DNA of 60,000 nucleotides from Lytechinus pictus (Eukaryota): positions 29,266,001 to 29,326,000 of the forward strand of contig NC_087245.1 of NCBI RefSeq assembly GCF_037042905.1, read 5' to 3'. Positions 12,401-24,400 of this stretch are shown here, piece by piece. Position 1 is the first letter of the stretch. Every line of letters begins with the position of its first letter. The notes beneath the pieces were generated by a model. The model had not been told where the DNA came from, searched no databases, and saw only the letters and a program-made list of their open reading frames with translations. Made by a program: the position numbers and the translations under genes.

Positions 12401-15400
12401 CCTACAAATGTATTTTTTTTTTCATATAAAATTTATGAATTTCGATGCAAAATATGCTCATGCAGTGCGAGCTCGGTCTGTTGATGTCGCGTCATTACAT
12501 ACAACACGCGCGTTGCAAACACGAGTGGTTTTACTTGTGGTGCCTGCTGTCTCGGTGCGCGCGTGCAATGGACACAATCGTATGGATCCAAATTGCACGA
12601 TGAATGACGTCATTGCAAAATGCACTGAATGATCGATGTTAAACAATTCAAATGACAAGGATGTACTTAGGTGTCATAGAACACAATCTAGACACACAAA
12701 ACCGCATAAAACATAAAATTACACGCGCACGCCACACACATGCCTCACCCACTCAACCCCAACGCACACACTCACCCATCCCCACACGTCGATGACGACC
12801 TATAACAGGCCGTGTTAAGTGGCGCCTATGTTTCGGGTAAATTTATGTGGGGAGCCATGAGGTAAAAAAATTATTGCAGCTATAGCTGCATCATCTATGC
12901 CTGCACCTGATCTGATTTCCACCATCACGGAGTCGAACTGCTAAAATGAGTAAGTTGTTAACTCTCAGGGATTATGATGTATCCTTACATGTTTTTTTAA
13001 CCCAGATATATTTTCCATCTACATACATTTGGTAGGCCTAGTTTCCTTTTCTAAAAGAAATGAAGGTGATTTCTTTTGCGCGATAAGTACATCAACATCA
13101 TTTCATACTCCTTCTTTATTTCATAAAAAAAAAAATCATGTTTCAAATTATATCATGCCCTTCATGATATATGGGGAGCTTCTCAATCAGACCAAGTTAT
13201 TGCAAAGGTGATTTCCCCCTTTTGATAGAATGAGTGGATTTCATTGTTCGCGCCTTCTGTCACTTTTCGCATACGCCATTTTATGGCTCGTTTTTGTGGC
13301 TGTTTGACAAGGATGGTAGAGATATACTATACTGCTACTACTTCTGCAAGATCATTTTAGTCAATTTCTCACAAATCAAATTTATAATGCGATCTATATC
13401 AAGTTATACGCGCAACGACTCTCATTCTAACACAATAGAAGTGTTTTATTTTACCCCTTTCATAAACCCAATTATGCGGCTAATAGCAGCATAATTTGGT
13501 CGTAAAATCGGAGGAGGACCAGAGTTATTCTCGGCAAACAAAATGACAAAACAAAATAATATGCGATTATGTCGTGGCTTTATTCAATAGAGATGAACGC
13601 TTCCCGAAATTGGTGTCACAATCACATAAGTATAAAACATGGATATGAATACCTCTGATTAGAGACTTACATTCATGTATATCTGAAACCAACCGATAGC
13701 CTCGAATTAGCTCCCCGAAGGGGGGTTAAACCCCCGGCTAGAAGGCCCCCCTCCCAGAAAATTCAACGTTAAATTTCGCGGCTGCTTTCCCACTGGTTCT
13801 CTGCTAGCCGGACAGGAATACCAGCACAGCTATGAACTACATTTATGAGCTACCGGCAAATCGGTGGATTACAGATGTCATACTTATATCATATAATATA
13901 CATATATATATACCAGCCTTCCCGCATGAGAAATTGGGTGAGGCCTAAATTTCACGAAAAATATAAATGTATACAGAATACCAGCCTCCCCGCCTATGAG
14001 ATCAGGTGAGGCCTAAACTGAAAGTTCGAGCGTGACACCCTTACATAAAATATAAATGTATACAGAATACCAGCCTCCCCGCCTATGAGATCAGGTGAGG
14101 CCTAAACTGAAAGTTCGAGCGTGACACCCTTACATTCAAATCTACAATTGCGTTCTTAAAGTACTATGTAAAGTTATAAATAAATCCCCTTCGTCTAGGT
14201 ACCGAATGAGGACCCGATTCAATATGAAATATTAATCAACGTACATGGCATCAAAGTGGAAAATCTAATAACTAGAGGCGAAAATATAATTCACTGCTTT
14301 AAACACCTTGCAAAAGTGACCATTGTGGATTAAAGAACATATGCCATGTCAATAATAAGACAATACAATTCATGTGAATTACCAATATATAACGAACACC
14401 CAGCCACAAAAACGGGTAAGGGCGAAAACCCACCTGACCACAGTCCAAAATAGATCAGAAGGATAAAATTCCCTTACGGCCCACATTTCTAAATGCACGA
14501 CGATCTTTGTATTGTTTTGGTGTGCGACCAGGCAAACTGCCTCCGGATTTGAATTCGTGTTTCGTTATATAAATCAATATTATATTAATGTAAGTAAACT
14601 AATTCAAATGCCCATTATCGACAGCTCTACATCCCGTTATTCCATTCTGAACGAGCTGTACATTCCAATAAAACACAAATCAACTCTGAATGATACGTAT
14701 AGCGTATCTTCATTCTCGACCTTCTCCAACGCATGTGTTTAAACAATATTCCAACATCGTTTGACCCAAACGTACCGTTTACATGGGTGGTTGTTGGGGA
14801 GGAGGTGGGAAAATTACAAGCGAATATTTTGTACGTTCATCTCCGTTGAAAGCCAAGACTAAAATGAAGGATTTTTCGCGCCTTCACACCTAGGCGCGCG
14901 CGCCAAAACATGCGCGCTCCTTGCGCCCAGTACAAATTATTATCATTGTGCGCATAAACCAAACAGGCTGGCGCTCCATTGTGACGTATCACCTCGTCAA
15001 CCGCGCCATTCCAAATTACAAATACCTTCATGACCTGGCATTGTTCACCGACTAATAAATCATTTTAAATCGCCGAGTCGTCTTTAAAATACATTATTCT
15101 CGGCAAACAAAATGACAAAACAAAATAATATGCGATTATGTCGTGGCTTTATTCAATAGAGATGAACGCTTCCCGAAATTGGTGTCACAATCACATAAGT
15201 ATAAAACATGGATATGAATACCTCTGATTAGAGACTTACATTCATGTATATCTGAAACCAACCGATAGCCTCGAATTAGCTCCCCGAAGGGGGGTTAAAC
15301 CCCCGGCTAGAAGGCCCCCCTCCCAGAAAATTCAACGTTAAATTTCGCGGCTGCTTTCCCACTGGTTCTCTGCTAGCCGGACAGGAATACCAGCACAGCT

Positions 15401-21400: not shown

Positions 21401-24400
21401 GGTCTTGTAGAGACTGGAACTTGTGAATTGTCTGGTAGTGGTACCGACCACGAGTACCCCGTTCCCCGTTCCGTCTGCCAATCCAGACCGTCGCCTCACC
21501 TCCCACAAGCAGACTCGAGAGCTCGGACTCAGCCTCCGGAGTAGGACCTCTGACTTCCGACAAACATTCAATACTCATAGTCATATCATTGGGTGATCAT
21601 GATGAATCATAGTCGACTGTATCATGGCGTCGCCGACAATGTCTAACTTATGCATGATTTCGTTGCCAATGTAGGCCTAGGCCTAGTCTCTAACCTTGTG
21701 CCAGGGCCCGTGCTCAAATGTTTTGTTGGCTGGGTTGGCTGTTGCCAGTCCCAAATCCTGCTCGTTAACGACAAGACTCTCAGACTCAATAAAAATTCCA
21801 GGCTTATGAAAAGCCGAATGAACTGAATTCCACCTAGCAGCTTGAGTCACATTCTCATCATTCGTTCCCATCGTTGCTGAAACCAAACAGCTCAAAGTTA
21901 GGGCCCAGCCGATCTGCTGACTGCTGTAATCGATACGGTCGCTCCCCGTCGTATTAAACTTGGTTCAAAGTCAAAGCAGACGAGTTATAATTGTTAATGT
22001 TAGGCCAGGCAAGAAATAGAGCATCAATCCATCATCAAGTAATTCGGACTGCATTTTCAGCTTCATAAGCGAAATTGTTGTGAGTCCCTATCGATGATGG
22101 TTTCAACAAAAAATTCTTGTAGATTTCGTTGTTCTTTGTAGATTACGACGTCTTCAAAAATGCAAGGTCGTAAGAAAAATTACAAGCGAATATTTTGTAC
22201 GTTCATCTCCGTTGAAAGCCAAGACTAAAATGAAGGATTTTTCGCGCCTTCACACCTAGGCGCGCGCGCCAAAACATGCGCGCTCCTTGCGCCCAGTACA
22301 AATTATTATCATTGTGCGCATAAACCAAACAGGCTGGCGCTCCATTGTGACGTATCACCTCGTCAACCGCGCCATTCCAAATTACAAATACCTTCATGAC
22401 CTGGCATTGTTCACCGACTAATAAATCATTTTAAATCGCCGAGTCGTCTTTAAAATACATTATCCGCATTATTTTGATGCTGCTATTATCCGCATAATAG
22501 CGGCATCGGGACCAGATTTTTATGAGGCGCCGAATGTACCAATATTATATAGAACAATTATTTGTTATATAATCATTATTTATTAAATAATAACTATTAT
22601 TTATATATAATTTACATTTTATTTGTAAATAACTACTATCATATAAAATATCATTTCTAATTATTTATATATAATTCCAAGTAATACTTCATTATTTGTA
22701 AATAATAATAGTTCGACATTCCATTATTTATAAATAATGATTATTTGTTTTTCATTATTTATAAATAATGATTATTTGTTTTTCATTATTTATAAATAAT
22801 GATTATTTGTTTTTCATTATTTACAAATAATGATTATTTGTTTTTCATTATTTATAAATAATGATTATTTGTTTTTCATTATTTATAAATAATGATTATT
22901 TGTTTTTCATTATTTATAAATAATGATTATTTGTTTTTCATTATTTACAAATAATGATTATTTGTTTTTCATTATTTATAAATAATGATTATTTGTTTTT
23001 CATTATTTATAAATAATTTGTTGAGTTTTCCATTATTTATAAATAATGATTATTTGTTAAATAATGAAAACGTCTACTTCATTATTTATAAATAATTTTT
23101 TCGAGTGCACCATTATTCTCATTATTTATAAATAATCATTATTTAATGTTCGAGTTTTCCATTATTTATAAATAAAGATTATTTGTTAAATAATGAAATA
23201 TCTACTTCATTATTTATAAATAATAATTTTGTTTCAATATCCCATTATTTATAAATAATCATTATTTATAAACAATTTTTACAGTTTGCCATTATATACA
23301 AATAATCATTATTTATATACAAATAACCATTATTTATTAAATAATGCCATTATTTATTAAATAATGCCATTATTTATTAAATAATGGAAAACTCGCTATA
23401 ACATGCAAATGTGGGACCGCCCATGATATGAATATTCATGATGCGATTTCCTTTTTCGTGATTTTTCTTCACAAATTTTTGTCCATTTCCTCTTCATAAT
23501 GACATTTCTTGAAGCAATTTTCTAGGGATATGGTCTGATTGTAATATTCTTCATTTTCTATATAACTTCGTCTTCGTAGAAATATCAAAAAGTGTAATTT
23601 TATACGATTTTTCCTACAGTTCACAATTCCCATAGGCGCGCGTGTACGGTAGGGACAACCGGTGAATCGACGGAGTGCTCTTCATCGAAATACTACGTTG
23701 GTTGGTCCCCGGAAGTGGCGGGCGGAATTTAGCCCGAATCCTCGATGGAAGTCGATCAAGTGCATATGAGCTGAGAGAGTGAAATATCAGTGTACTTGTA
23801 CAGGCCCTTCTACTTTTTATAAATATTTCTTGTTGCTTTTTTTTTTTGTTAAGTTAATTTTTCCTGGTGTAAAGATAAGTTTCAGTTCTAATAATGCACT
23901 TCAAATACATTTTGGAGTGTCTGTTTGAGGCGTTTGGGGCGATTTCACCCTGGCCCCAAAATGCTCGCAATGACAATACGGGGGCATGATGACCCCTAAA
24001 TTTTTAAAAACTTATTTTTCTATTGAAAATTATCACAAAATTCACCAAAAGTGTGCACGAAAGCCTTCGTATTTCACTTTTAAAACTCCGAAAAGTGCCC
24101 AAATGACAAGCTTGGTCGCTTCGCTGTGTCGCTTTCAACTTGAGAACGTTTACGCGTCTGCTCCCCCCCCCTCCTCCGAAAGAAATTCTGCATGTATACG
24201 GCCATGCTCTAAAGAGCCTGGCACATTGATTTATGTATACTTTCATTTTCATTATTTTTATCTCATTATCAACATGGCCTTACGCATAATTTTTTCCAGG
24301 GGGGCCGGGGCCGGAGCATGACGCGCGTTAACTTTCTCAAAAAAATCTTGAAAGCGAGACAGCCACGGGACCAAGCCCAAATGACAAGCTTTGTCGCTTC

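Follow-up and report, generated by a model that had tools for sequence, protein, structure and literature searches.

An 8.9-kb gene-less mobile element with split direct repeats in the genome of Lytechinus pictus

A 60,000-nucleotide stretch of the Lytechinus pictus genome, hereafter the window (NCBI RefSeq assembly GCF_037042905.1, contig NC_087245.1, positions 29,266,001 to 29,326,000), carries at 13525 to 22463 an element in which two long direct repeats, A and B, each occur twice around a gene-less interior, raising the question of what kind of element this is and how it could move. The element is real and very young and belongs to a family of about fifty copies, with a main and a sister subfamily, and the whole 8.9-kb composite is the mobile unit. 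It is very probably a non-autonomous retrotransposon of the DIRS order, of the split-direct-repeat type, mobilised in trans by the Gag, reverse transcriptase (RT)-RNase H and tyrosine recombinase (YR) of an Ngaro or PAT-like family, through an RNA intermediate, RT template switching and YR integration; the best reading is that of a TOC1-like passenger of Ngaro/PAT machinery. A first-pass annotation of the window had proposed a young, large, non-coding passenger of split-direct-repeat YR retrotransposons, a proposal supported by the mobility of the composite, the homogenised repeats and the lack of coding content.

The composite is the mobile unit

Self-BLAST of the window bore out the A1-interior-B1A2-spacer-B2 arrangement that had been annotated at 13525..22463. 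Read on the minus strand, the ~8.9-kb element consists of A1, a 6252-bp interior, a fused B1A2 block, a 455-bp spacer and B2. The 288-bp A repeat is identical at 288/288 positions (14810-15097 and 22176-22463), and the B repeat at 829/830 (13525-14354 vs 15094-15923). The repeats had been called identical, which holds for A and for an 824-bp core of B, the full 830-bp B having one mismatch; the annotated 824 bp is the perfectly matching part, and B reaches 6 bp further, hence a spacer of 455 and not 461 bp and an interior of 6252 bp. The sequence of the B1/A2 junction and both host boundaries of the window copy, which lies in a miniature inverted-repeat transposable element (MITE), read as annotated. 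B2 contains an 89-bp tandem pair at 13958-14135, present as a single unit in the sister subfamily. The features of the element are the following.

22460..22463, plus strand: host-derived TTAT of the target, without duplication; varies at 16/41 family ends and is single in a paralogous empty site
22176..22459, minus strand: A1, the 5′ split repeat, whose outer end meets the host at the crossover ATAA/TGTA; identical to 14810-15093
22176..22191, minus strand: predicted 5′ end of the RNA and putative A2-to-A1 template-switch zone; private A variants at positions 17, 19, 22, 23 and 25 are present in both A copies
15924..22175, minus strand: non-coding interior, 6.25 kb; no Pfam match over the cut-off, and the exon-like 21875-21675 largely deleted in the sister subfamily
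16682..17526, unstranded: old tandem duplication of two ~440-bp units, 80% identical, common to both subfamilies
15094..15923, minus strand: B1, the internal 830-bp repeat and template of B2, starting with the element's own TTAT (self-BLAST; repeat comparison)
15899..15923, minus strand: B1 side of the putative B1-to-B2 switch zone, B positions 806-830; sole zone of inherited B1/B2 mismatches, with conversion towards the B1 allele and a variable endpoint
15061..15114, unstranded: B1/A2 junction, with the crossover between 15093 and 15094 in an imperfect inverted repeat (47 genome-wide junctions; fold)
14810..15093, minus strand: A2, the internal repeat and template of A1 (self-BLAST; repeat comparison)
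14355..14809, minus strand: unique 455-bp spacer, present in 28/28 composite copies at 433-459 bp
14330..14354, minus strand: B2 side of the putative switch zone; the 3′ end of the RNA is predicted here or a few tens of bases outward (repeat comparison)
13525..14354, minus strand: B2, the 3′ terminal repeat, ending in the element's own ATAA; TTAT at 41/41 B-side ends
13452..13524, unstranded: left part of the target host MITE, which continues at 22460-22520 and 26880-27140 and matches L119:1515-1648 and L119:7458-7689

Searches of the 812-Mb assembly (L-numbers denote retrieved genome regions and F1-F7 coding families) with A and with B gave 138 and 140 candidates, 40 of each being scored, and showed that other copies share the A-BA-B layout; 28 full composites were compared. 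The junction pattern matched 47 times genome-wide and a reversed control 0 times, which excludes a chance origin of the layout. The first 20 regions retrieved comprised 15 full composites, 4 solo long units (B-interior-A) and 1 copy cut at the region edge; a mismatch-tolerant search exposed the sister subfamily, with full composites in 12 of 20 further regions. The first-pass annotation had allowed that the other copies might all be simple one-unit elements, and composites instead dominate in both sets. Solo short units (B-spacer-A) occur in L003 and L009, and the inner edge of A has 136 genome matches vs 7 for its control. Beyond A, the internal junctions continue into the spacer in 44 cases and into the interior in 0, and no permuted order was found among them; since the order is fixed, a chance dimer of independent units is excluded.

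Composite length ranges from 8059 to 9009 bp across the 28 copies, a set without L074, which is cut at the region edge. The two subfamilies are ~11% substitutions apart and nested, clades within the main subfamily differ by 1.2-2.4%, and nearest copies, with different flanks, by 0.1-0.5%, the window copy being 0.3% from its nearest. L137 is a mosaic: its distance from the main subfamily is 0-4% over 17355-22175 and 5-13% over 15855-17355, and its B is closer to the sister; this fits, and does not prove, recombination between two RNAs. A short-short-long array lies at C12:3045364-3055950; 1.58 kb separates its two junctions, and a long unit comes after them. Older relatives, 84-89% identical, form two opposite-facing fragments in L148 (C15:24484705 and 24487215), with the same junction core and a broken inverted pair.

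The interior encodes nothing. Its longest stop-to-stop frame does not exceed 129 aa, none of 23 element frames scanned against Pfam passed the cut-off, in agreement with the annotated lack of any gag, RT or YR remnant, and an Rfam search of the element gave 0 matches at E 0.5. A tblastn search of 104 long YR-locus frames against 32 interiors matched solely a 170-bp MITE in L131 and L138, and a fossil RT or YR was accordingly rejected as read-through of that MITE. A spliced gene with exon-like frames near 21964-21686 and 21596-21360 was likewise rejected: the first frame is largely deleted in the sister subfamily, neither has a Pfam match, and indels do not preserve frame, multiples of 3 making up 8/33 to 16/45 within the main subfamily and 47/179 and 49/186 between subfamilies (24-36%). 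No splice joints were seen in the interior in three raw RNA runs, of each of which ~6% was read, at low depth. Between subfamilies, BLAST identity is 70-85% for the interior vs 93-98% for the repeats. Longer copies were considered as autonomous versions and discarded, since 3 of at least 4 (C11:2.50 Mb was the one left aside) all carry secondary insertions with their own inverted ends. A short stretch of the interior at 19320-19390 resembles, as we take it, the 3′ tail of L2-type long or short interspersed elements (LINEs/SINEs).

Repeat renewal and a fixed crossover

The two copies of each repeat within one element are far more alike than those of different elements. With the terminal core and the innermost bases trimmed, A1 and A2 differ by a mean of 0.11 events within a copy vs 10.8 between elements, and B1 and B2 by 0.61 vs 18.1 (28 composites); the A copies, 7.4 kb apart, are nevertheless identical in 25/28 elements. 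Private mutations sit in both repeats of one element, L062 lacking the 89-bp unit in both B copies and L137 lacking B positions 787-805 in both. The internal B1A2 block is the source from which both repeats are renewed at every jump.

B1/B2 mismatches common to several elements are confined to B positions 811, 819 and 825, in the inner 25 bp. Terminal B2 has been converted to the internal B1 allele in L133 (811), L136 and L146 (819) and L062 (825), with an endpoint that varies between B positions 806 and 827, and the reverse was never seen. In A, homogenisation extends to within 17 bp of the inner edge, as the private variants found in both copies show. Near-identical repeats with such switch zones at their inner edges are the trace expected of RT template switching, and two switches may be proposed, from B1 to B2 landing in the inner ~25 bp and from A2 to A1 within 16 bp of the inner edge. 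L137 was set aside as evidence that A2 is the template of A1, since its A is main-type over the inner half. Among coding elements of the genome, the Ngaro copies L118, L124, L125 and L130 (families F4 and F5) have a B1/B2 mismatch at position 3 of the B inner edge, and the PAT-like copies checked show no clear mismatch there.

In the proposed cycle, a minus-strand RNA of ~7.9 kb would run from within 16 nt of the inner edge of A1 to just inside B2, RT would restore the missing ends by the two switches, A2 to A1 and B1 to B2, and YR would join the product to ATAA-like sites. Solo short and long units would arise later, by recombination between two A or two B copies.

The ends of the family define the integration site. 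TTAT stands at 41/41 B-side ends, whereas 16/41 A-side ends read ATAT, TTAA, ATAA or TTAG (Fisher p 5e-6; counts without L120, a false match, and L010, a junction and not an end), and the base before the B end is A in 28/41. The TTAT annotated at both boundaries is thus correct for the window copy and is not a family-wide rule. TTAT at the B end belongs to the element, which inserts at one fixed bond 5′ of a host WTAW, the target being (A)/WTAW, without duplication. A paralogous copy of the host MITE (L119:1515-1648) runs uninterrupted across the site with one TTAT, in keeping with two earlier claims, that removal of the element restores the MITE and that no true target-site duplication exists. 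In that same L119 MITE copy a coding F4 element has inserted at an ATAA; the corresponding site of the window, near 26901, is empty. Copies of F2 (L112, L117) and F4 (L118, L119, L126, L157) also cross over at ATAA, with 6/6 B2 ends intact and 3/5 A1 ends host-variant.

The junction had been annotated as that of a circle, and its sequence is as described; the picture is too simple, for a closed double-stranded circle should often insert permuted, which was never seen. That model is strained because, with a unique spacer, the two junctions of the circle share an identical context over more than 280 bp to one side and 800 bp to the other, so that about half of the insertions should be permuted, against 0/44 observed. 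Two staggered strand exchanges are disfavoured as well, since target variants would be expected at either end and 16/16 lie on one side. Both the single permutation and the one-sided variants follow if YR exchanges the first-strand complementary DNA (cDNA) only, that is, the window plus strand with its 5′ end TTAT, and replication resolves the product. We therefore suggest, tentatively, that the integrating substrate could be a single-stranded or otherwise asymmetric cDNA and not a closed double-stranded circle. That YR makes just one strand exchange, on the first cDNA strand, and that replication then resolves the product, as happens with integron cassettes, is possible but somewhat doubtful; a passenger resembling large retrotransposon derivatives (LARDs) would then need no homology to its Ngaro helper, only an end fold and an ATAA core. 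Alternatively, the new junction of a circle could remain nicked or bound by protein, together with repair biased to one strand. DIRS-1 cDNA is described as single-stranded and mostly linear (PMC7192593), and integron integrases as following a one-exchange route on a single strand (PMC4792948). No paper on single-strand integration by Ngaro or PAT was found in the literature searched, which was mostly open-access and without the 2004/2005 Goodwin and Poulter papers.

The annotated 6-bp inverted pair GCCGAG/CTCGGC does lie at 15072-15077 and 15099-15104, where it forms part of a longer imperfect arm of ~16 bp (15061-15077 and 15099-15114); it is not strictly required, as L062 breaks it in both B copies. 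Junction windows of split-repeat families tend to fold (z -1.8 to -5.2 for eight junctions; -2.7 for F7), and the fold here is weak in the main subfamily (z -1.4 to -1.9) and reaches -3.2 in the sister. At such values the hairpin was rejected as proof of a single-stranded substrate, inverted arms also fitting a double-stranded YR site.

Competing explanations and candidate helpers

A rolling-circle HUH element (Helitron, Helentron or Replitron-like) that reads through an internal end, giving short, long and short-plus-long units, is a very improbable source of the family. HUH chemistry is compatible with one fixed crossover at which the host supplies the motif at one end and the element brings its own at the other, and solo short units, solo long units and one short-short-long array (C12) exist. 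The same crossover asymmetry, however, is seen in coding YR retroelements of this genome. Helitrons and Replitrons are marked by rolling-circle copying, internal repeats inherited independently and tandem units in any order; copying of that kind inherits the repeats separately and cannot place a new mutation in both, and the interior-A/B junction is absent (0 vs 44). The family shows neither independent repeats nor any-order units; HUH genes were not searched for.

We also consider it highly unlikely that the element consists of a short and a long non-autonomous unit joined head to tail and moving as one circle by Crypton-like cut-and-paste. The 4-bp terminal repeat, the inverted pair around the junction and the occurrence in the genome of single-ORF (open reading frame) YR loci without an adjacent RT frame are all in its favour. 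Cryptons, as characterised in PMC3212892, are without terminal inverted repeats or long direct repeats, however, and the element has two long direct-repeat pairs; DNA excision would not homogenise repeats, and a DNA circle would insert in both orders where one is seen. Scarcely credible is a one-time end duplication of the long unit by unequal recombination, with post-insertion gene conversion keeping the repeats identical, for although the B copies are merely 1.57 kb apart and recombination between repeats is evident from the solo units, the A copies match across their far greater distance, conversion runs in one direction only and ends, in either subfamily, within the same 25-bp zone, and an older copy, L070, has 5 unconverted B differences, which suggests that divergence within a copy tracks its age.

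Candidate helpers for a passenger of Ngaro/PAT machinery are present. Searches for YR loci, in which 98/200, 121/294 and 120/172 candidates were scored, give an incomplete inventory, the first of them yielding at least 78 matches. Seven coding families with RT and YR frames (the RT of F3 and F7 outside the Pfam scan) have the split-direct-repeat layout; two share the ATAA crossover and none shares sequence with the element. F1, F2 and F6 have sub-threshold Dam matches and small, PAT-like repeats of 125-210 bp. In F4, F5 and F7 the repeats are large (A 230-410 bp, B 390-660 bp), the spacers measure 260-880 bp, a complement of the B end lies within A, and those scanned gave no Dam match; an SGNH hydrolase is found in F5 and a frame resembling it in F7. 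Across the coding families the spacer is 160-880 bp long; F6 is the exception, its YR frame being placed between A2 and B2. By target signature and abundance, our guess at the best helper is F4, which is very young (~25 YR frames at 95-100% identity, most uninterrupted), with F7 and F2 as further candidates. The autonomous partner with the same ends that the first-pass annotation had called for was not found among the seven sampled families. Pattern searches for a helper by shared ends returned only the element's own family, and a 9-base match between the F7 and element junctions was treated as chance, its position relative to the crossover being different.

Some further YR loci and families of the same genome are of note. 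Single-ORF YR loci without a neighbouring RT frame are found in L107-L109, L120, L122 and L123. L151 and L152 (F6) hold an intact young YR family with internal repeats between the RT/methylase and YR frames, L151 as a head-to-tail tandem; the nematode form of Pat1 is described with internal repeats in that position (PMC4157794). About 40 near-identical F2-related copies (e.g. C2:22401751, C12:11793133) share the same stops and a break in the YR frame, and this defective lineage seems to have been amplified in trans.

Against a DIRS-order passenger stand the following points. RT activity, cDNA and YR action on the element are each deduced from patterns in the DNA. Blastn and tblastx of the element against all sampled coding families gave no significant match, a search for junctions of other families with up to 3 mismatches over 22 bases gave none beyond the level of the control, and local alignment of the ends with five families reached at best p 0.015, in 2 of 10 tests, which is not significant after correction. 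In the three RNA runs, depth over the interior was at most 2.6 with no consistent strand and no full-length RNA was seen; the transcript with the best coverage comes from a divergent solo short copy, apparently on the opposite strand. Gene conversion could, moreover, contribute to the identity of the repeats.

If it is such a passenger, the family is a natural experiment for the split-repeat type of the DIRS order. The replication model of the order, described for the inverted-repeat type, is presented in PMC7192593 as largely untested, primer and recombinase specificity included. Comparison of its polymorphic copies confines one template switch to ~16 bases and the other to ~25, assigns the crossover to a single bond and excludes that the two junctions are used at random. 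A 9-kb gene-less sequence would also be amplifiable by this machinery, in a class that protein-based annotation misses, and, if the asymmetric route is true, split-repeat YR retroelements would not integrate via the textbook closed double-stranded circle.

Neighbouring sequences and comparison with known systems

Three different elements (the split-repeat family, a foldback and Ngaro F4) have inserted into two copies of the host MITE, which is ~400 bp long and has inverted ends.

Window 13452-13524, 22460-22520 and 26880-27140, and L119:1515-1680 and 7458-7689, unstranded: host MITE segments (sequence matches)

The foldback, at 22521-26879 and 57 bp from the element in the same MITE copy, is a 4.36-kb non-coding structure with arms 86-96% identical, AT-rich tandem arrays, a palindromic centre and a 6-bp duplication, GATTTT; related ends occur in L015, L078 and L093. 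On the minus strand, 3336-11249 and 46604-60000 hold exons of two tandem genes, those of the first at 3.3-11.2 kb, which we take from the heme motif to be cytochrome P450-like. Upstream exons of the first gene were looked for and not located, and an intronic position of the element is thus unproven. At 34050-42499, 158-bp tandem arrays lie inside a 3.65-kb direct duplication. Elsewhere, an insertion of 7.5 kb at L167:224-7716 has short inverted ends and holds a frame of 1232 aa without a Pfam family over the cut-off, the atlas look-alikes at 0.92-0.94 being unnamed eukaryotic clusters; the insertion is possibly an unclassified DNA transposon, and a related insert is present in L169.

Among known systems, TOC1 of Chlamydomonas reinhardtii is the precedent for an element of this kind, and has a split-repeat layout with a short unique spacer. 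It is a non-autonomous DIRS-order retrotransposon (PMC9940879, PMC5613634), described as a non-autonomous version of TOC3 (PMC5613634). Like TOC1, the present element is multi-copy, non-coding and of the DIRS order, and it has been recently mobile, with its 47 junctions and closely similar nearest copies. Unlike TOC1, which has a coding partner in TOC3, it shares sequence with none of the seven sampled families, and its host is an animal.

In Ngaro elements, A1 lies at the 5′ end and B1, A2 and B2 at the 3′ end, with identical repeat pairs (PMC9210276), and solo AB repeats have been described (PMC8547959); PAT-like elements (Pat1, Toc3, Kangaroo) are given split direct repeats in PMC4157794. 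The family shows the layout, the identical repeats, and the short shared core without target-site duplication of these groups, and F2, a PAT-like family of its genome, shares the ATAA crossover. The element has none of the Ngaro frames (gag, RT-RNase H, YR, hydrolase), resembles them neither at the DNA nor at the protein level and, at 8.1-9.0 kb, is longer than the coding Ngaro copies measured in its genome (~7.0-7.7 kb); PAT elements encode RT, methyltransferase and YR, and the PAT-like repeats of this genome are much smaller. The two groups are told apart by a methyltransferase, absent from Ngaro and present in PAT, and by placement in the RT tree, and the element has no coding sequence to compare on either count. 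The element works like an Ngaro/PAT retroelement and yet cannot be filed in either group, because the coding content by which they are defined is missing from it.

LARDs are large non-coding passengers of retrotransposon machinery, of conserved length, with long terminal repeats (LTRs), use of integrase and a 4-6-bp target-site duplication; the element is likewise a large non-coding passenger, but it has split repeats and neither two full LTRs nor a duplication. SIRE is the A2-to-B2 part of VIPER of Trypanosoma cruzi, which has the split-repeat layout (PMC6681497), and is the counterpart of the solo short unit, whereas the mobile non-coding unit here is the full composite. Cryptons are defined by 4-6-bp terminal direct repeats without long direct repeats (PMC3212892; see also PMC13465315), a definition from which the two long repeat pairs set the element apart. 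A zebrafish repeat named DIRS-N1 is mentioned in PMC5400779, and non-autonomous DIRS-order families have therefore probably been catalogued in animals; the literature delimited above yielded no paper describing an animal split-repeat passenger that is large and non-coding. The kind of element thus has a precedent in TOC1, and what is new is a gene-less split-repeat passenger without homology to the sampled helpers.

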